NCBI GenBank assembly: GCA_965197475.1
Contig: CBDANF010000003.1
Location: 704,001 to 768,000 of the forward strand
Reading direction: 5' to 3'
Length of the DNA: 64,000 nt
From: Candidatus Poribacteria bacterium
Lineage (GTDB): Bacteria > Poribacteria > WGA-4E > WGA-3G
Within the stretch, counting starts at the first letter, position 1; the number at the start of each line of letters is the position of its first letter. This document shows positions 20,399 through 40,569 of this stretch, in pieces. The notes below the pieces were generated by a model. The model made no database searches, was not told where the DNA came from, and worked only from the letters and a program-made list of their open reading frames with translations. A program made the translations under genes and the position numbers.

Positions 20399-21502
20399 TT
20401 AGGATCTCAAACGCATCGGTGCAAGGAAACATTTATGTCCATCATCCCCCATAGGTTTAACAATAAGGAAACTAAACTCTCCCGAAAACTCAAGGATTAC
20501 AGATTCCGTTTCAATATGTGTAAAGATTTCTGTTAGTCTATGAGCATCCAAACCGATCCGTACGTTTCCATTACTAGATTCAACAGCGACTGTTTCATGT
20601 GCTTCACCAAGTTCAGGGGTTTCGGTTGAAATTCGAATTTCTTCGGGATCAATCTCTAAACAGATCGCAAAATTTTTCGGATTTGAAAGTAAAGCCACTC
20701 GGCGGGTCGCTCGTAGGATTGATTCCCTTGATACAACCGCCCGACCCTCAGAAAATTCCTGTATAAGCGATTGGTATTTTTGATATTCACCTTCTACCAA
20801 ACGTGTTGTCAAGGTGGCGTTGTTATCGGTAAGAAGAATTTGATTCTTGAGCAGTAAAATCTTAACCTCGGTGGAATTGGCAAAGGTACGCGCAATTTCC
20901 TTGACAGCCTTCAGTGGAACAATAAATTCACTAACATCTTCAGATGTTTTTAGGGGTGAACAATTTGCCAACGCAAGTTTATGTCTATCAGTTGCGACCA
21001 CTTCAGTTCTATCTTCAAGAAGATTGAAAAAAAGCCCGTTCAGCTGGTACTGAAATTCCTCTGTAGATGCCGCAAACGCTGTTTTGTGGATAACAGAGCA
21101 CAAGGTTTCACCATCAATAGTTACACCTTCTCCCTCAGCAGATGGCAGTTGTGGAAAATCTTCATCGGAGAGCCCAATCATTTTGTAAGTACCATCTCCG
21201 CAAGTGAGTTCAACACGGTCATTTGCGGTTGTAACCAAGTTTATCGGCTTATCTCCGGGTAATTCTCGGACGATGTCTGTCAATTTTTTAGCAGAGACCG
21301 TGATAGCCCCTTCTTCCAGGATAGTGCCTACCACTTTAACTCTAATACCGACTTCTAAATCGGTCGCTGCAAATTCAATGTTCCCATCTTGTGCGCGAAT
21401 AAGAACATTTGCGAGAATCGGCAAGGTGTTACGTCCACTTGCTACACCTTGAACTAGTTGTAAGGAATATAAAAGTTCGTCTTTTTCAAAAGTAAGTTCC
21501 AT
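20399..21502 (-). CDS. dnaN: DNA polymerase III beta sliding clamp, divergent paralog (copy B)
   Basis: Full-length clamp (TLPIL.NVL, ATDLEV, DFP.LP, LNG, ATD, PMRL), colinear with the adjacent copy. Confidence 0.9.
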   Translation of the reverse strand: MELTFEKDELLYSLQLVQGVASGRNTLPILANVLIRAQDGNIEFAATDLEVGIRVKVVGTILEEGAITVSAKKLTDIVRELPGDKPINLVTTANDRVELTCGDGTYKMIGLSDEDFPQLPSAEGEGVTIDGETLCSVIHKTAFAASTEEFQYQLNGLFFNLLEDRTEVVATDRHKLALANCSPLKTSEDVSEFIVPLKAVKEIARTFANSTEVKILLLKNQILLTDNNATLTTRLVEGEYQKYQSLIQEFSEGRAVVSRESILRATRRVALLSNPKNFAICLEIDPEEIRISTETPELGEAHETVAVESSNGNVRIGLDAHRLTEIFTHIETESVILEFSGEFSFLIVKPMGDDGHKCFLAPMRLRS

Positions 21503-21539
21503 TGCAATCGCTCCTATTATTTTAGTGTCAAATCATTAA

Positions 21540-21705
21540 TAAGACTTACGGAATTTGTCAGATTTTAATCCAAGCATTCCTTTCCCATATTTTGAGTTAA
21601 TTATACGTTAAAAAATGGAAAAGTCAAGTATTTTTAACAAATGTTAAAATCTGTCAGGTTTGTCATAAGAATCGGGGAAATCCTATCGTCAGCGTAATGT
21701 CTACA
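21540..21705. repeat. Degenerate inverted-repeat element between the dnaN copies
   Basis: TGTCAGATTTTAA / TTAAAATCTGTCA arms; left end AAGACTTACG resembles the CAGGACTTACGCA TIR family. Confidence 0.45.
21600..21627 (-). promoter_or_regulatory. Sigma70-type promoter for dnaN copy B
   Basis: Minus strand TTGACT, 16-nt spacer, TATAAT; about 100 nt upstream of the ATG at 21502. Confidence 0.55.
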
Positions 21706-21732
21706 TCCTGATAAGTAAAACGTATATACGAC

Positions 21733-22851
21733 TTAGGATTCTGATGACGAATTTGTTTCTAAGCGCATCGGCATGATGATACAAATGTGTACATCATCAC
21801 CTACAGGTTTTACAACAAGTGGATTCAACTCTCCAGAAAACTCTAAAACCAGAGATTCAGTCTCAATGTGTGCTAAAACCTCCGTCAACAACCGCGCATC
21901 AAAACCGATCCGAACGCTACCGCTGCCAGATTCTACTGCAAGTGTCTCGTGTGCCTCACCATGTTCAGGCGACTTTGCTGAAACCTGAATCTGTTCGGGG
22001 TCTATATCTAAGCAGATCGAAAAATTTTTCGGATTTGAAAGTAAAGCCACTCGCCGCGTAGCACGTAAAATTGATTCCTTCGATACGACCGTACGACCCT
22101 CAGTAGATTCGGGTATGATCGTCTGATATTTCGGATATTCGCCTTCTACCAAACGTGTTGTCAACGTTGCGTTTTCATCCGCAAAAAGAATTTGATTCTT
22201 GACAAGTGAAATTTTTACCTCAGGGGAATCGGCGAAGGTGCGTTCAATCTCCTTGACAGCTTTCAGCGGGACAATGAATCCGCTGATATCTTCAGGTGCC
22301 TTCATGGGAGCACAATGTGCAAGCGCGAGCTGTTTTCCATCAGTTGCGACCACTTCAGTCTTATCTTCAAGAAGGTTGAAAAAGAGCCCGTTCAAAAAGT
22401 ATCGGACCTCCTCTGTAGATGCAGCGAATTCTGTTTTATGGATAACAGAACACAAAGTTTCACCTTCAATCGTTATAGCCTCACTATCAACAGATGGTAG
22501 TTGTGGAAAATCTTCATCGGAGAGTCCAATAATTTTATAAACACCATCTCCGCAAGTGATTTCAATTCGATCGTTTGCAGTTGTAACGAGTTCGATCGTT
22601 TTATCTGGTAATTCTCTAACAATGTCTACCAATTTTTTAGCAGAAACCGTGATGGATCCTTCTTCTTTGATAGTTCCAATGACTTTGACTTTGATGCCGA
22701 CTTCCAGATCGGTCGCTGTACATTCAATGTTCCCGCCCTCGGCACGAATGAGGACGTTTGAAAGAATTGGCAAGGTATTACGTCCACTTGCCACACTCTG
22801 AACTATCTGTAAGGAATATAAAAGTTCATCTTTTTCAAAAGCAAGTTCCAT
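21733..22851 (-). CDS. dnaN: DNA polymerase III beta sliding clamp, canonical-looking copy (copy A)
   Basis: VRYFLNG, ATDG, GEYPKY and IIMPMRL motifs conserved. Confidence 0.95.
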   Translation of the reverse strand: MELAFEKDELLYSLQIVQSVASGRNTLPILSNVLIRAEGGNIECTATDLEVGIKVKVIGTIKEEGSITVSAKKLVDIVRELPDKTIELVTTANDRIEITCGDGVYKIIGLSDEDFPQLPSVDSEAITIEGETLCSVIHKTEFAASTEEVRYFLNGLFFNLLEDKTEVVATDGKQLALAHCAPMKAPEDISGFIVPLKAVKEIERTFADSPEVKISLVKNQILFADENATLTTRLVEGEYPKYQTIIPESTEGRTVVSKESILRATRRVALLSNPKNFSICLDIDPEQIQVSAKSPEHGEAHETLAVESGSGSVRIGFDARLLTEVLAHIETESLVLEFSGELNPLVVKPVGDDVHICIIMPMRLETNSSSES

Positions 22852-23190: not shown

Positions 23191-23289
23191 ATACTATAGA
23201 AAATATATCCATTATATTTTGGTATATCATCTTTAGCAGTTTCAGAACAGAAATTGTGTCAGCATCTTAATTTCACCCTCCTAACAAGA

Positions 23290-25221
23290 ATGCATCAGAC
23301 AAACTTACAGACTTCGCAGCCAATTTCAAAACGGGCGGTATTGATTGGTACCGTCCTGATCATAGGCAATAGCTACTGGATAGCTTATGTTGAAATGATT
23401 TGGCATACAGCGCACCTGACAACCGTTGCAATGTCTGTGAACGTCATGTTCGGCATTTTTGTTATCACGGTGTTGAACATGTGGATCCGAAGTTTAGCAC
23501 CGAGTGCTGCGCTCACACAGCGCGACCTGATCGTTGTTTACAGCATGCTTGCAGTCGGCAGTGCATTTTCAGGACACGATTGTATTCCGCGGCTTATGGG
23601 ACTTATTCCGTACGCCTTTCGCTTTGCTACTGCTGAAAATGATTGGGAAGCACTGCTTTTTCATCATCTTCCTGAATGGCTTGTCGTCAAACATCCGAAA
23701 ACGGTCAACGATTTCTACGAGGGTAACGTCAACTTTTTTACCGAAGGGTATGTGCAATACTGGATTGTCCCTATTCTTTCATGGTCGGCGGTTATCTTTC
23801 TTTTGATGTTGATCTTTCTTTGCTTGACTGCCTTGATTCGCAAGCAATGGATAGAAAGCGAAAAACTCGCGTATCCGATTATCCAAATCCCACTTGAGAT
23901 TACTACGAACCGCCGCATCTTCAGAAAACGTCTCCTCTGGATCGGCTTCGGGGTAGCAGTAGGGATAAACCTACTCAACGGGTTACATTTCTTTTTTCCG
24001 ATGCTACCGGAAATTCCTGTCAGAAAATATAACCTTAATATCTACTTCACACAAAAGCCGTGGAACGCGATAGGTAGCACACCGCTTCGGTTTCATCCTT
24101 ACCTAATAGGCTTTTCGTTTATTCTGCCGCTGGATTTAGCGTTTTCGTGTTCGTTTTTCTACTTAATGAAGAAGGTGCAGCTCTTATTTGGAAGTGCGAC
24201 AGGTGTATCAAAATCACCGGGGTACCCATTTTTAGGGGAGCAAGGTGCAGGCGCGTTGCTTGCGCTTCTTGCTGTAGCATGTTGGAATGGACGAAAGCAT
24301 TTTGCATTCGTGTTTTCACAAGTGATTCGACCAAATCGTGCGGAGGCACAAAATGAAGCGTTTTCCTATCGCAGCACCTTAATTACATTAGCATTATCCC
24401 TGTTTTTACTTGCTGTTTTCTGTATTCGAGGTGGCATGTCGTTATGGGCATTTGCCGTTTTCATCGGCATCTACCTGCTGATTGTTGTCGGTCTAACACG
24501 GATGCGTGCAGAACTTGGTCCCCCGATACACGCAATCGGCTACCTAACCCCACAATATATGATGATTTCACTCCTCGGCACACGGAGACTACGGGCGGGC
24601 AATCTCACGATGCTATCATTGATGAATTGGCTGAGTGGTGCCAGTTATGCCTCATTCCGCACCCATCCAATGCCTGATCAGTTGGAAGCGTTCAAACTGG
24701 CGGAGCGGACCAGTATTCGAAATCGAACGATGTTCACGGTGTTAGTCATCGCAAGCCTCGTCGGTATCTTGTCAAGCCTAATTCTCTATCCGTATGCAAT
24801 CTATCGCGAAGGAGTGGCTGCAGGTTCCGAGCAGATTCACGCCGGTGGCGCAGATACATATAATTTCTTGTCATCATGGTTAGTAAATCCGAAACCGATG
24901 GACTGGTTAGCAACAACTGTGCTTGGGGTAACGTTCATAGCAAATTTGGGCATCATGCTGCTTCGATCACGCTTTGTGTGGTGTCCACTGCATCCAGCGG
25001 GATATGTTATAGGCGTTGCGCCTGGAACAACAGATATAATCTGGTTCCCGCTGCTTATCGCGATGGTAACGAAATGGATTATCTTACGGAATGGCGGCAT
25101 AAAAGCGTATCGACGGGCAATACCGTTTTTCATCGGGTTGGTTTTGGGGGAAGCGTTGATGGGCTGTTTCTGGCCTCTATTGAGCTTAATTTTGCGGTCA
25201 GCGGTGTATAGTTGGATCTGA
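23290..25221 (+). CDS. Polytopic membrane protein, DUF6785/DUF6784-like (putative transporter)
   Basis: Many TM segments; RKQW...EKL.YPI..IP, R.RAE.G.P and W.PLHP.GY motifs; start uncertain (23254 or 23290). Confidence 0.65.
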   Translation: MHQTNLQTSQPISKRAVLIGTVLIIGNSYWIAYVEMIWHTAHLTTVAMSVNVMFGIFVITVLNMWIRSLAPSAALTQRDLIVVYSMLAVGSAFSGHDCIPRLMGLIPYAFRFATAENDWEALLFHHLPEWLVVKHPKTVNDFYEGNVNFFTEGYVQYWIVPILSWSAVIFLLMLIFLCLTALIRKQWIESEKLAYPIIQIPLEITTNRRIFRKRLLWIGFGVAVGINLLNGLHFFFPMLPEIPVRKYNLNIYFTQKPWNAIGSTPLRFHPYLIGFSFILPLDLAFSCSFFYLMKKVQLLFGSATGVSKSPGYPFLGEQGAGALLALLAVACWNGRKHFAFVFSQVIRPNRAEAQNEAFSYRSTLITLALSLFLLAVFCIRGGMSLWAFAVFIGIYLLIVVGLTRMRAELGPPIHAIGYLTPQYMMISLLGTRRLRAGNLTMLSLMNWLSGASYASFRTHPMPDQLEAFKLAERTSIRNRTMFTVLVIASLVGILSSLILYPYAIYREGVAAGSEQIHAGGADTYNFLSSWLVNPKPMDWLATTVLGVTFIANLGIMLLRSRFVWCPLHPAGYVIGVAPGTTDIIWFPLLIAMVTKWIILRNGGIKAYRRAIPFFIGLVLGEALMGCFWPLLSLILRSAVYSWI

Positions 25222-29956: not shown

Positions 29957-30939
29957 TTGAGTAAAACATAAGGATGTGGTAAAATAGGGAAAAAAGGGTA
30001 TAATTTATGTCCCTTTCTTTCCACTTCAGATACCGCTTTACTTTATGAAAGGTGTTATTATGGCAAACGAGGCTCAAAAATCACCAAAATACAACTGTAT
30101 TCCCAAACAGGTTTCCCGTAAAGATTTCAATCGTTATATCTTACCACATTTAGCGAAACGAGTCAAAGGCCCGAAACCGAAACTCTCCTTGGACAAGATA
30201 TTCAACTATATCCTCTATGTTTTACATACGGGTATTCAATGGGATCAACTCCGAACCCGGCATCCTGAACTCCATTGGTCTAATATCTATAAATGGCATA
30301 ATCGGTGGTCAAAAGATGGCTCGTATCAGAAACTTTTTGAGGCATCAGTGATACACGTGCTTGACACCGACCAACTTGACACCTCTCAACTTCATGGAGA
30401 TGGGTCAAATACCGTCGTGAAAAAAGGGGTGACAGCATCGGTTATTCAGGCCACAAACATCAAAAAGGTGAAAAAGAGTTGACCATCACTGACAATCAGG
30501 GGTTCATCATCGGTCCGATAACCATCAAACCTGTCAACCAACATGGGACAAAGATTTTGCCCGAAGCATTCACCGATCTTATCGCCTTTGCTAATCGTAT
30601 TGGAATGGATCTTAGTGCTTCCGTTCTAACACTGGATTCCGGTTTTGATTCCAAAGAGAATCATAAGATTATCAAACAACACGGGCTGCTCCCGGTGATC
30701 TATCCGAACCGGCGGAATGCCAAAGAACCTATTGTAATTGCCCGTCCGTTCCGGTGGTTTAACAAGAAAATGGACAAAGACCGATATAAAGTGGAACGAA
30801 CTTTTGGTTGGCAAGGGACTTATCGGAAGCTCGCCCTTAGTTATGATAAACTGAAAGAAACCCGTTTAGGTTTTCGTAATTTAGCATATTCAATGATAAA
30901 CTTTCGGAGAACTTTCAATGATTCTTAGCTCTTACTCGC
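29957..30939 (+). mobile_element. IS5-family insertion sequence
   Basis: Imperfect TIRs (GAGTAAAACATAAG vs GAGTAAGAGCTAAG); TA on both flanks; encloses a split DDE transposase. Confidence 0.8.
30045..30928 (+). CDS. IS5-family DDE transposase in two ORFs joined by a -1 frameshift at AAAAAAGGGG (30420-30429)
   Basis: ILYVLHTGIQW and HNRWSKDG; the shifted join reads KKGGDSIGYSGHKHQKG; D(GDGS), D(LDSGF), E(VERTF) triad. Confidence 0.85.
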
Positions 30940-31754
30940 TATGAGTTTTTTATGTCTTGAAAAAGTCCCGAACTTGTCCCAAATTTGACTAATTGTTGCT
31001 TCAGCACCTCCCATTCCTTTTTTTGAGTAGCTTCTATCCGCGTTAGTAGCATTGGAACATCGCTACCTTCTGGATCGTTAAATTCCCGTGCCGGATCGTA
31101 AGTTCGATTAGGTCGTGACCTAATCGGCGATGTACTAAATACAGATAAACTACCAAAGGTAGCCCACGGTCGGTATTGGCTTATTCCAATATAGTGACTC
31201 TTTTTTCTCAAATATTCGTCTAAAGCAATTTCTCTATCAGATTCCCCTCTAAAAATGGGTGAAAGTAAGTTAATAGGAGGTGGGGCTAAGGTGTCAGTAC
31301 CACAAATTATTTGATATTGATTTCGTTTTTCATCATAAGAGGCTAAACGCACAATCTTTTCGATTTGTTCCTCGGTTTCAAGAATGATTTCACCATCAAC
31401 GAATTTTACTCTTATTGAACTGACAGTCGGTTCAATTCTTCCTTTTTTCTCAACAAATTCAACTGTCACTTCGGCATCTTCATTGTTGTATGTGCCAGCA
31501 AACCCAAGTTTAAAGTTTTTCTCTCTTTTTTTACTGTTTCTGACAATATCCTTAAAGGTGCCTAATGAATAAAGATCCGAATTAAAATCTAATTCCCTAT
31601 ATCGTAAATAATCCACTAATACTTGGAAACAAGCGAGCGCAGTCGTCTTGCCGGTACTATTTTCACCAACTAAAAACGTTAGCGGGCGAATTTCAAGTGT
31701 CTGACGTTCTCCGAAACAGCGAACCTCTTCCATTGTAAACTGGGTAATGCTCAT
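30939..31754 (-). pseudogene. Truncated ABC/AAA_21-type ATPase
   Basis: LVGENSTGKT Walker A present; no signature, Walker B or HLHP region; stop codon formed at the IS junction. Confidence 0.7.
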
Positions 31755-32015
31755 CTTGTCACCTCCTCAATCATCATTTGAGACCATGATTTTAAGTATA
31801 ACATATCCTATAAAGGAACTTAAGTTAATTTTCAATTCAAAATTACCTGTACTTTAAAGCTAAAGCGTTTCTATAAACATTCTACCCCGCTGAAACTAAT
31901 TCCAATACAAAAATTAACGCACAATCAAAATGATTACCATTTAATATGGATCTTAAGTTATAATAATTGATTATAGGGGAGAACTACAGAATAAATAAAA
32001 ATCGCAGGAGAAAAA

Positions 32016-37339: not shown

Positions 37340-38488
37340 TTATTGCTTTGTAAGCCATTCCTTAGCCCATTTGAGGCGGTTAGGTGCGATGATTTTTCCT
37401 CTTTTATTTTCCCATCGACCTATACTCCAGTAGTAGGCGCAGGTCTCCGCCGCGTTTTCATGAAGTTTGGAGGAAAAATACTCAGACCAGTCAAAACCAT
37501 GCTTTCCATGCTCTTCCCAGTCTTTATCTCTCGCTTCTTTGTATGCTTTTCCCTCATCTGTCTCTTCCCAGTTGTGTGTAGTAGCATCTTGCCAATTACC
37601 ATCAATAGCGACGAGAGCGGCTTGGTGGGCATGGGCGATTTCGTGAGCCAGGGTTGACAGAGCTGAATTTGCTGCCCGTGGACCACGAACGGCGAGATCA
37701 CTATCTACTGCAGCTATTCCGTTACCATAACCTCCGAAAATACTTTCATCAAATGATGCCTGAATATACAGCAGGTCATATGGTAACAGTGTTTGCTGTA
37801 GAATGAACCGTACTTTTTCCGGCCACACTTGACCCATCAGTATGTTGCCAGGAGTTTGTTGTGGATCTCTTTCGTAATTTGGAGTAATGCCACCCGGTAG
37901 AGAAGTTGGGCGTGATCTGTGCACTATGACTTCTTTCGTCTCCATGTGCTCTTTCTCAACACGAAGATGCAGCTCATCCCCATCAACGTTTGAGAAGATG
38001 TACTGACCATCTTCATGGGTGGTAGTGGTTTCCCCTGATCTTGGTCCTGATACAATAGTCACAGTAACACCAGATAGGGGGTATGCATAGTAGCGTCTGA
38101 GAGCACGTATAAAATTCTCAGTTTCTACTTTTGGATAAACTTTCGGAATAAAAACACATCCAACAAAGTCTGTTTCATTTTGTGCTAATTCTTCTTTTGT
38201 GTGTTCCGATGCTAACTTGTCACTTGTTCCATCACCATGTGTGAAAAAAACGAAGTGTTCTTCAGGAATTTCTGGCTCAGGCTCAGGCGTTACCGGTTCT
38301 TCCGGCTTTTTCATCTCACCCATCATGCCTGAATCTATCGGTGGTTTTTCTTCTGGCGGTTCAGGTTCTGTGGGTTCCTTAACGGTATGGTTTTCCACAA
38401 CTGGTCCCACCATATCCATTCCTTCATCACATCCACCTATGAATGCCACTATCATTAGTACACTCAAAAACAATGCAAAAACCTTCAT
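37340..38488 (-). CDS. Lipoprotein with Pro/Glu linker, carboxypeptidase-regulatory-like domain and putative zincin domain
   Basis: Signal peptide ending IGGC; PLSGVTVTI...TT..DGQY.F; HEIAH plus downstream ENAAE. Confidence 0.7.
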   Translation of the reverse strand: MKVFALFLSVLMIVAFIGGCDEGMDMVGPVVENHTVKEPTEPEPPEEKPPIDSGMMGEMKKPEEPVTPEPEPEIPEEHFVFFTHGDGTSDKLASEHTKEELAQNETDFVGCVFIPKVYPKVETENFIRALRRYYAYPLSGVTVTIVSGPRSGETTTTHEDGQYIFSNVDGDELHLRVEKEHMETKEVIVHRSRPTSLPGGITPNYERDPQQTPGNILMGQVWPEKVRFILQQTLLPYDLLYIQASFDESIFGGYGNGIAAVDSDLAVRGPRAANSALSTLAHEIAHAHQAALVAIDGNWQDATTHNWEETDEGKAYKEARDKDWEEHGKHGFDWSEYFSSKLHENAAETCAYYWSIGRWENKRGKIIAPNRLKWAKEWLTKQ

Positions 38489-38727
38489 TTTTGCAACCTC
38501 CTTGTAATTCTTTAGATATTATAACAATTTATAAAATACTGTTTTAGCAGTGTCTCATCAATAGGTTTTACTACGTTTCGCATAATGCTATCTTTAACAT
38601 CAGCTGCCGCTTTTCTCTCAGCTGCCATATCGTTCCAATACGAGAACACGTACGCTACGGCAAACACGATCAAGAAGGCAACGACACCGAGAAATACTTA
38701 TTTGTAAGAAAATCACGATGTATCTTA

Positions 38728-38947
38728 TACCAAACAGGACTTACGCATTCCCCCTTGATAAGGGGGTTAGGGGGGTTAAAAAGTCGCTGTTTCAGTGATT
38801 TAACCCCCTAAATCCCCCTTATCAGAGGGACTTTAAGAAAAAATGCGTAAGTCCTGACCAAATTAACCTGATTTGTCGCGCGAGGTCTCTGGGTTCTCCT
38901 CGCAATGCTGCCTTTATCAGAAAAATAATAATCACGTTAATTTGGTA
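38728..38947. mobile_element. TACCAAATTAAC-family MITE whose left TIR is interrupted by another MITE
   Basis: T-ACCAAA[insert]ACCAAA-TTAAC ... GTTAATTTGGTA; body homologous to E1/E3. Confidence 0.8.
38735..38856. mobile_element. MITE, CAGGACTTACGCA family
   Basis: Perfect 13-bp TIRs; 6-bp target duplication ACCAAA; near-copy of 36811-36961. Confidence 0.9.
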
Positions 38948-38950
38948 TAA

Positions 38951-39107
38951 TAACCCAAGTTGCCACCTTTGTAGCATAATCTGTTAGATTGTGCCTATAA
39001 GTGCGCAAACTGACATTGGACGCTACAAAACTTTCGCAAATAATGCACTATTTTTGATTAAAACAGTGTCTACATGTCTAAAATCTTATAGGTAGCAACT
39101 TGGGTTA
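38951..39107. mobile_element. MITE, TAACCCAAGTTGC family, with a GTAG doublet
   Basis: TIRs TAACCCAAGTTGCCACCT / AGGTAGCAACTTGGGTTA; TAA on both flanks; internal TTTGTAGC...GCTACAAA. Confidence 0.8.
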
Positions 39108-39300
39108 TAATATAGCATTGCTCCGCAGAATTAATCTTATTAAGCCCAATATTATATTTTTTATATTTCTATATTATTAGACTTAATAAGATTAATTTTA
39201 CCATATTAAGCAGATAAAGCAAGCAAAAAATGAAATTTAATGTAATTTGGGGGAAATATAGTTGAAATTTGAGGGAATTTAGACTATTTTTTTGCAAATA

Positions 39301-39433
39301 TAGCGAAACCAAAAATTACTGATACACTGTGTTAGGTTCGGTTTCCTAACCGAACCGTGTTTATCCAGGCTCCAGATGCGGTTAGGAAACCGCATCTACC
39401 AGAGTAGTGTTCATATATTCTTAGGTTTTACTA
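39301..39433. mobile_element. MITE-like element, TAGTAAAACC family, with a REP doublet
   Basis: Imperfect TIRs TAGCGAAACC / GGTTTTACTA; hairpins GGTTCGGTT..AACCGAACC and GATGCGGTT..AACCGCATCTAC. Confidence 0.65.
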
Positions 39434-39522
39434 AAAATCAGTTAGAAATCATCAACCGAATCATCAACCTGTCTAAACCCTTATGTATTGTAGGTTTTTA
39501 GTATAATCATCAACTAAATTCG

Positions 39523-40569
39523 TTAGAAATCATCAACCAGTACATAATAGGTTCCTCTCGCTTTACCCTTTTTATTTAACAACCCACTTTGTACCAATGT
39601 CAACAATTCTTTATGAGCCGTTGCATGTGAAAGATCGGCAAGTTGCTGTAATTCCCGATTGGTAATTCGTCCATGCTTTTCGATATAGGCGAGAATAGCC
39701 AGCTGTCGTTCTGAAAGTGCCACTTGTCCAATTTTATCTCGTAAAGCTCTATCCCTGCTGTGGGTCAAGACCAATTCTTTAATCTTCTGCATTTCAGCTG
39801 CAATGCCAGCAGTAAAATACGCCAACCATGTTGTCAGTACGCCTGTTATCCGGACACTCTGCAAAGCTTCATAATAACCAGCTGGGTTCACATCGTAATA
39901 TTCTTCAAGAGAAAAGAGTTTTTTGATGTCGTAACCTGCATGGTAAAGAATGAGATTTGCAAGTGCGCGTGCTGTTCTTCCGTTACCATCAAGAAATGGA
40001 TGAATATCAACTAACTGGTAGTGAGCGATGCCTGCCTTAAGTAACGGGGATAGTTGATTTGCTTCGTCTGAACGCAACCAATCAACCAATTCAAGCATCA
40101 GAATCGGTACTTCAGAAGCAGGAGGAGGTGTGTAGATGACCTCTTTAGTTTTGTTGTTTACGACATAATTCTGGATTTTGCGAAATTCACCCGGTTCATA
40201 ACCTCCCTCAATCCCACCAAGTGTCAAGTAATGTATATGCCGAATCGTGCGGAGATCGAGTTCCATGTTAGGATCGCCATAAACTTCATCTATGAAGGCA
40301 GCGACTTTCAAATAATTGCGAACCTCTTGTATGTCTCGCTCTCGTGCTACAACGGTCTTGTCATCAATGAGGTCTCGAACCTGTTGTATAGTGAGTTGAG
40401 TCCCTTCAATCCGAGTAGTGTGATGTGCTTGACGGACTAACGCTTCCTTTTGAAGACGTGACTGCCAAACGGGAAGGATGGAAGAGTTTTCAATTACCTC
40501 TTTCGCACCTTCAATGTTCATCAGGTCTCTAACAATACTGTGTGTATATTCGAATTTAGGTGTAAACAT
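39523..40569 (-). CDS. Fic-domain protein with a C-terminal wHTH
   Basis: HPFLDGNGRTAR Fic motif; N-terminal TTRIEG inhibitory motif; ITNREL...G..RGTYY HTH. Confidence 0.92.
   Translation of the reverse strand: MFTPKFEYTHSIVRDLMNIEGAKEVIENSSILPVWQSRLQKEALVRQAHHTTRIEGTQLTIQQVRDLIDDKTVVARERDIQEVRNYLKVAAFIDEVYGDPNMELDLRTIRHIHYLTLGGIEGGYEPGEFRKIQNYVVNNKTKEVIYTPPPASEVPILMLELVDWLRSDEANQLSPLLKAGIAHYQLVDIHPFLDGNGRTARALANLILYHAGYDIKKLFSLEEYYDVNPAGYYEALQSVRITGVLTTWLAYFTAGIAAEMQKIKELVLTHSRDRALRDKIGQVALSERQLAILAYIEKHGRITNRELQQLADLSHATAHKELLTLVQSGLLNKKGKARGTYYVLVDDF

Follow-up and report, generated by a model that had tools for sequence, protein, structure and literature searches.

Tandem beta-clamp genes with unlike partner-binding pockets at the dnaN locus of a Candidatus Poribacteria genome

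The DNA analyzed here, a stretch of 64 kb from a Candidatus Poribacteria genome (G000:C3:704001-768000; hereafter the window), carries two adjacent dnaN genes on the same strand, copy A and copy B, each encoding a complete beta clamp. We hold with moderate confidence that copy B works as a second beta-clamp subunit, that its partner-binding pocket has been retuned and not blocked, and that it is an in-place tandem duplicate, vertically inherited under purifying selection. The integrity of the genes, the age of the duplication, the selection acting on it, the location of the changes and the constancy of the partner motifs were established directly. Copy A is presumably the main replicative clamp.

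The two copies are colinear, with 277 of 367 residues identical (75%) and one gap. Both match all three Pfam clamp domains in order (PF00712, PF02767 and PF02768), and both exceed the cut-off of the TIGR00663 dnaN equivalog (A 290.3 bits, B 247.2 bits; cut-off 137.65). Solved beta clamps were matched end to end, with best E-values of 6.9e-57 for A and 4.3e-53 for B, and the predicted local distance difference test score (pLDDT) of chain B was about 90-91 in the complex-model runs described below. The first-pass annotation of this DNA had described two full-length, colinear beta clamps, and this description stands: the open reading frames (ORFs) begin and end exactly where it placed them, they have the domain, equivalog and structure matches expected, and every motif string quoted from A or B is present in the translations. 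It had also reported that dnaA, recF and gyrB are missing from the vicinity. For dnaA this is correct, the only Bac_DnaA match of the genome sitting on a different contig (C2); for recF and gyrB it extends to the 21 flanking ORFs between 6.9 and 38.5 kb, which are housekeeping genes (nadC, lpxK, lpxB, asd, aminotransferases, membrane proteins), the remainder of the 64-kb window being unscanned for these two genes.

In the whole genome (G000; 5.7 Mb, 92.7% complete) the dnaN matches were A and B only. A and B share a single 4.17-Mb contig, and many relatives, some of them single-contig genomes, have the same arrays, by which an assembly artefact or contamination was ruled out. Nor was a near-identical tract found between the two copies (nucleotide identity 0.67-0.89 per 30-codon segment), and recent gene conversion was rejected as well.

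Where do the two proteins differ? Residues were numbered by alignment to E. coli K-12 DnaN, and the pocket was defined in two ways. The first definition comprises 13 positions taken from four papers. M362 is described as a gate, G174, R365 and P363 as backbone contacts and R152 and H175 as the rim (PMC11703123); R152, G174 and H175 are named as pocket residues (PMC3716654), as are L177, P242, V247, M362, P363, M364 and L366 (PMC2685083), and V247, P242, R152, R246, M362 and T172 are described as lining the pocket (PMC3335792). The second definition takes the residues in contact in the complex model. Of the 13 literature positions, 7 differ between A and B, versus 78 of 349 elsewhere (Fisher p=0.016); of the 24 model contacts, 12 differ, versus 77 of 342 elsewhere (p=0.004). 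The proposal that the differences cluster in the pocket and are not spread evenly is therefore borne out under two independent definitions, and alignment reproduced the mapping of the divergent motifs to E. coli R152, G174-R176, P242, N320/Y323, V344-S346 and M362.

This divergence is asymmetric, and by the following counts copy B is the derived copy. Private replacements were counted at 170 columns, each of them conserved in 15 or more of the 17 sister-family clamps; 12 of the columns belong to the pocket. Copy B had 15 private replacements at these order-conserved columns, five of them in the 12 pocket columns (R152Q, G174R, P242Q, I247L and M362A; p=0.0015); copy A had three, and none in the pocket. 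Measured against the sister-family consensus, B shows R152Q, G174R, R175H, R176K, P242Q, I247L, A346F, L360F and M362A. Among the canonical pocket residues, B has retained T172, L177 and P363-L366 and has lost the five positions of its private set. Copy A retains all of them except R175, which is replaced by lysine, a basic residue like H175 of E. coli, and its loop T-D-G-K-Q-L is the copy nearest to the canonical T-D-G-R-R-L. The KQ that the earlier annotation found unusual in A, in place of HR, is indeed a departure from the canonical loop, but a small one beside the one-residue insertion that orthologs carry at the same place.

The dimer interface was compared over 20 positions (E. coli K74, R103/R105, R269, I272/L273 and the E298-E304 region, from PMC12269063). 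A and B are identical in 18 of these columns and differ in only two, which agrees with the shared interface segments pointed out earlier. Both copies resemble the sister families at K74, R269, L272, L273, E298, E301 and E304. The interface columns are alike in the paralog clades of the genus (A0, A1, A2, B, C, D and E; see below) and in the sister families, so no subunit-specific interface was recognized, and comparison of the clade interface columns revealed no complementary changes between paralogs. With an unchanged interface and neighbouring genes on the same strand, A and B could plausibly combine in mixed rings; such rings, with two unlike pockets, would be expected beside the homodimers A2 and B2 if both genes are expressed.

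Copies A and B thus have in common with the canonical DnaN of E. coli (2POL/1MMI) the three domains, the full-length equivalog match, the head-to-tail interface and the C-terminal P-M-R-L. In contrast, canonical DnaN is the product of a single gene, forms a homodimer and has a near-invariant pocket, whereas here there are two genes (2-4 in the genus), and copy B replaces R152, G174, P242 and M362.

The distribution of the paralogs was traced across the order, where dnaN was matched in 40 of 41 genomes, and the clamp data covered 24 genomes of the window's genus, the window included. Genomes of this genus mostly have 2-4 dnaN genes, mostly in tandem, while those of other families mostly have one. 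A B-clade clamp was present in 13 of the 24 genus genomes and a D-clade second-gene clamp in seven, the arrays being of the types A-B, A-C-B and A-D. The D-clade pocket resembles that of B (Q152, R174, S362). In the window's subclade the genes run in the order DUF6785, dnaN array, HIBADH-like, LPG-synthase TM, nadC, and relatives with a single dnaN at the locus (L030, L031, L037) have the same flanks. This identity of flanks indicates that the duplication arose in place.

The B clade was recovered in two trees, in one with 10 rows at a support of 99* and in the other with 14 rows at a support of 98*. In the genome-resolved set we distinguished first-gene clamps of clades A0 (the window), A1, A2 and E, later-gene clamps of clades B, C and D, sigma-fused clamps and very divergent ones. 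The repertoires were A1-C-B (four genomes), A1-B (two), A2-B (one), E-B (four), A0-B (one, the window), A2-D (seven, two of them also with a sigma-fused clamp), E plus a divergent clamp (two), B-B (one, G022) and an odd clamp only (two fragmented genomes). Of the 20 genomes with derived B, C or D copies, 19 also had a first-gene clamp. A single old lineage of B and D was not rejected by the approximately unbiased test (p-AU 0.20), and likewise not one of B, C and D (p-AU 0.21). As far as phylogeny and gene order tell, the duplication is old, took place at the ancestral dnaN locus in an ancestor of the genus, and has been inherited vertically.

Two other kinds of clamp were met in the genus. 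In three genomes an extracytoplasmic function (ECF) sigma factor (regions 2 and 4) is fused to a complete three-domain beta clamp in proteins of 585-594 amino acids (L098:634-2388 (+) in G019, L102 in G021, L107 in G024); the dimer-interface columns of these proteins have diverged from those of other clamps, and none is encoded in the window's genome. The very divergent clade (L083:411-1607 (-) in G004, L105 in G023, L097 in G018) scores about 143-172 bits to A and B and has the three clamp domains. Its members are encoded off the main dnaN locus, and one is the sole clamp found in G018, the assembly of which is fragmented. Outside the genus, another family of the order has its own tandem dnaN pair (L108 in G037), independent of those above; its pockets are almost canonical, with G174A and L155M in one of the copies. 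This suggests that tandem dnaN duplication recurs in the order.

Between orthologs of the window's subclade, dN/dS was 0.04-0.17 for A, 0.04-0.19 for B and 0.10-0.18 for C, and dS between A and B was about 0.7-1.15. By these ratios the three paralog clades are under purifying selection. The comparison of related genomes that had been proposed as a check on B thus speaks against neutral evolution, and B, being conserved and under purifying selection, is no decaying copy. Parsimony counts of nonsynonymous and synonymous changes (N/S) were 4/50 in the pocket versus 703/1431 in the rest of the protein in the sister families, where the pocket is the most constrained part, and 66/154 versus 1751/3933 in the window's genus. 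Several pocket columns rank among the most variable in the genus by entropy (of 366 columns, 176 is first, 174 third, 175 fourth, 345 fifth and 362 twelfth). Columns 174, 175, 176 and 362 were replaced 12, 11, 13 and 8 times there, versus 0-1 times each in the sister families, while D173, L177, Y244 and R365 stayed unchanged. The pocket states are fixed inside each paralog clade. First-gene clamps of clades A1, A2 and E (e.g., L093, L078, L089) have a one-residue insertion in the 173-177 loop (T-D-G/A-x-R-Q/H-L), which is absent from the window's copy A, and because of it most of the seemingly ordinary first-gene clamps of the genus are non-canonical at this loop. The C clade is without the C-terminal P-M-R-L and reads S-L-H-K/R.

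Have the partners of the clamp changed along with the pocket? The window's genome has one DnaE1 (a frame of 1183 amino acids) with the internal motif GQMNLFE, and one delta subunit. Of 24 genus rows, 20 have QMNLF as the DnaE1 motif; the four E-B genomes have QTSLF, QLNLF (two) and QMTLF, and the pattern Q-x-x-L-F is present in 31 of 31 rows, G022 included. The window's genome has a single copy of delta, and so do 22 of the 23 genus relatives in which delta was matched, the exception being G015 with two. All 30 rows retain the delta wedge Y-P-x-M. Covariation of the replicase motif or of the loader wedge with pocket type was not seen.

A second polymerase-like frame was found in the same genome. 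G000:C2:686917-691221 (+), identical to L171:118-4422, is a stop-free frame of 1435 amino acids that combines sigma-70 region 4, an FtsZ/tubulin GTPase, FtsZ_C and a DnaE core (PHP, pol III alpha, finger, HhH). It stops short of the clamp-binding motif and the OB fold found in DnaE1, and frames of equal size occur in G002, G006, G012, G017 and G022. A second alpha class of about 1030-1060 amino acids, which by its length may be DnaE2-like, is present in the sister families and did not appear in the genus genomes searched.

The first-pass annotation had proposed that the pocket of copy B is blocked or retargeted and that B could be a decoy clamp. Three lines of evidence weaken the blocked-pocket and decoy proposals. 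The complete, single-contig genome G022 has only two clamps, both of the B clade, and has the same QMNLF and loader wedge; the motifs of the partners do not vary with pocket type; and in a complex model QMNLF is docked in the pocket of B. In this model of B with a DnaE1 segment of 65 amino acids, the interaction prediction score from aligned errors (ipSAE) was 0.72 versus 0.00 for the best control, this mark being reached by 58 of 80 solved complexes and by 2 of 110 mismatched pairs. Three runs gave at least 94% contact agreement and a partner pLDDT of at least 58, and the QMNLF motif lay against B residues 171-176, 241-246, 343-345 and 359-364. The modeling indicates that the pocket of B is probably still usable. 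Since the loader and the replicase have kept standard docking motifs, B most likely still accepts motifs of the QxxLF type.

These observations can be joined in one scheme. In an ancestor of the genus, dnaN would have been duplicated in tandem at its ancestral locus, copy A keeping the ancestral docking pocket and copy B keeping the three domains, the C-terminal PMRL strand and the interface for head-to-tail pairing. In B, the side chains that line or rim the pocket would then have been replaced and held fixed, with no departure from the standard docking motifs in the single clamp loader or in the replicase. With its changed rim chemistry, B would bind QxxLF-type motifs with altered affinities. 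The cell would then have docking sites of two classes, and the second could differ from the first in the ranking of its partners, in its response to pocket binders, or in both; mixed A/B rings would be expected beside A2 and B2. That B is loaded, forms rings, mixes with A and differs in partner preference is inferred. We regard more tentatively, as possible and below an even chance, the broader idea that the clamp of the genus is a small multigene family with a common interface and different pockets, in which mixed rings, whether A/B or put together from A, C and B, carry two non-equivalent docking sites.

Several points weigh against the retuned-pocket explanation. R152 and G174 are reported to contact DNA too (PMC3716654), and R152Q and G174R might therefore alter DNA handling and not the choice of partner. 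No match to a Y-family (IMS) polymerase was found in the 92.7%-complete genome, and the copy number of the alpha subunit does not track that of the clamp in the genus (G021 has three clamps and one alpha, G009 two clamps and one alpha), by which a clamp number following polymerase number was ruled out; there is thus no obvious specialised partner in view. The B subtypes of G022 (R152 kept, S or M at 174, D or P at 242) are unlike the window's B (Q152, R174, H175, K176, Q242), so that G022 is no proof that the pocket of the latter supports replication. The passing score of the complex model may reflect memory of solved clamp-peptide structures and is to be taken as likeness, not binding. The pocket N/S in the genus is 0.43 versus 0.45 for the rest, meaning that the extra constraint is gone and yet evolution is no faster; pervasive positive selection on the pocket is accordingly unsupported by parsimony N/S. 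Finally, contigs from a sponge metatranscriptome study (one study, at least 99% identity) cover parts of B in four of four runs and parts of A in two of four, a hint that A and B are transcribed in the sponge, but contigs of RNA libraries can neither rank expression nor exclude DNA carry-over, and the parts of the locus without such cover (e.g., 21483-21937) are uninformative.

The most serious rival, which we consider improbable on balance, makes B and the other derived paralogs escape or insurance clamps. They would be insensitive to an attacker of the canonical pocket, for example a cyclic-peptide natural product of the sponge holobiont, a phage protein or a clamp-targeting toxin, and would let replication continue when A is blocked. 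The motifs of the essential partners stayed constant while the pocket changed, as expected under pressure from an antagonist and not under partner co-evolution, and the rim columns were replaced repeatedly (8-13 times at 174, 175, 176 and 362 versus 0-1 in sister families); for these two reasons the idea has to be taken seriously. The changes also fall on ligand and inhibitor contacts (R152, T172, G174, H175, P242, R246, V247 and M362; PMC11703123, PMC3335792, PMC2685083, PMC3716654), and resistant second clamps exist, namely GriR and MypR of griselimycin and mycoplanecin producers, the genes of which lie inside the biosynthetic cluster by transposases (PMC10817943). With these B shares the status of a second DnaN and the idea of a pocket unlike that of the housekeeping clamp. 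The genomic context is different, however: B stands in tandem at the native dnaN locus, is inherited vertically across the genus and has housekeeping neighbours, the 21 ORFs between 6.9 and 38.5 kb including no nonribosomal peptide synthetase (NRPS), polyketide synthase (PKS) or transposase. Membership in a defence system was also rejected, A, B and a C-clade clamp matching no PADLOC family. On this context the GriR-like resistance clamp suggested by the first-pass annotation fails. An escape role in general must further contend with the age and vertical inheritance of the paralog, the fixation of its states per clade and a pocket N/S not above the gene average.

The genes stand next to each other on one strand in the conserved order A-(C)-B, and B might work only as half of an A/B ring (A/C/B in triple arrays). 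The unchanged interface would let A and B pair, all but one of the 20 genomes with a B, C or D copy have a first-gene clamp as well, and an archaeal precedent exists in the heterotrimeric clamp PCNA1-2-3 of Sulfolobus (PMC1636371, PMC3321178), of which this would be the bacterial counterpart. Several clamp paralogs per cell with different docking surfaces are common to both systems, and Sulfolobus PCNA is the closest analogy for mixed A/B rings; it belongs, however, to a different clamp family, and its specialised interfaces fix the order of assembly, whereas the interface here is unspecialised. With the same interface in all clades and no complementary changes, nothing enforces heteromers and homodimers should form too, and G022 has B-clade clamps only, without any A-type clamp. 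An obligate heteromer is therefore unlikely. We consider it very unlikely that B is merely redundant, whether kept for dosage or drifting slowly as a spare without a role of its own. Redundancy would suit two colinear proteins of 75% identity. The second clamp gene of Bacillus, dnaN-2, lies at a locus separate from dnaN-1. It has about 40% homology to dnaN-1, can be deleted without phenotype and apparently can support replication (PMC3290774, citing Yang & Miller 2008). B has in common with dnaN-2 that it is a second chromosomal clamp, but unlike dnaN-2 it is 75% identical to A, in tandem with it and the product of a lineage-specific duplication in Poribacteria. An omega of about 0.1 maintained over dS of about 0.7-1.15, pocket states fixed in each clade and an asymmetric, pocket-focused divergence (p=0.0015) are at odds with drift.

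The beta-clamp pocket is regarded as among the most conserved protein-protein interaction sites of bacteria and hence as a drug target (PMC3290774, PMC11703123). This genus of sponge symbionts has lifted the constraint: it has 2-4 clamp paralogs with differing pockets, and its replicase and loader motifs are standard. If mixed rings or different client preferences are confirmed, the textbook picture of the clamp, a symmetric homodimer in which both sites are equal, would have to be qualified. Retuned pockets would also be natural variants that reveal which pocket residues can change without loss of replication, which bears on the evolution of resistance to pocket-binding antibiotics. Mixed rings, if they form, could hold two different clients in a defined way on one ring, or could remain usable when one pocket type is blocked, and would correspond, in a bacterial and dimeric form, to heterotrimeric PCNA. 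In the literature searched, neither the dnaN of Poribacteria nor any tandem clamp family with rebuilt pockets is described; for clamp paralogs or duplications, only Bacillus dnaN-2 and GriR/MypR turned up. The words paralog, heterodimer and duplicat are absent from a 2024 beta-clamp review.

The features of the locus are collected in Table 1. No terminator-like site was found in the 230-bp spacer between A and B. The promoter-like scan found nine sites, where shuffled sequences give an expectation of 6.8 +/- 2.7. That B has a conserved promoter of its own was considered and rejected, the 11/12 site not being kept in three other aligned genomes with an A-B pair, and because of this the function of the promoter match is uncertain.

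Table 1. Features of the dnaN pair (positions in the window)
Feature	Position	Strand	Remarks
dnaN copy A	21733..22851	(-)	372 amino acids; first gene of the array; near-ancestral pocket (R152, G174-K-Q, P242, M362-PMRL)
A-B spacer	21503..21732	(-)	230 bp; mostly unconserved in relatives
Sigma-70-like promoter match upstream of B	21600..21627	(-)	TTGACT-16-TATAAT, 11/12
GGAG ribosome-binding motif	21511..21514	(-)	8 nt upstream of the B ATG; conserved in 4/4 aligned spacers; alignment columns about 410-437
dnaN copy B	20399..21502	(-)	367 amino acids; second gene; B-clade member; rebuilt pocket, dimer interface and C-terminal PMRL retained

On the other side of copy A, and divergent from it, the window encodes a membrane protein of 655 amino acids with DUF6785 and DUF6784 (23254-25221, (+)), which is a conserved dnaN neighbour at many Poribacteria loci. 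Farther along, two stretches are low in GC (30001-32000, 0.387, and 38001-40000, 0.385, versus about 0.44 elsewhere), and the ORF at 30939-31754 (-), inside the first of them, has AAA_23/AAA_15 ATPase matches.

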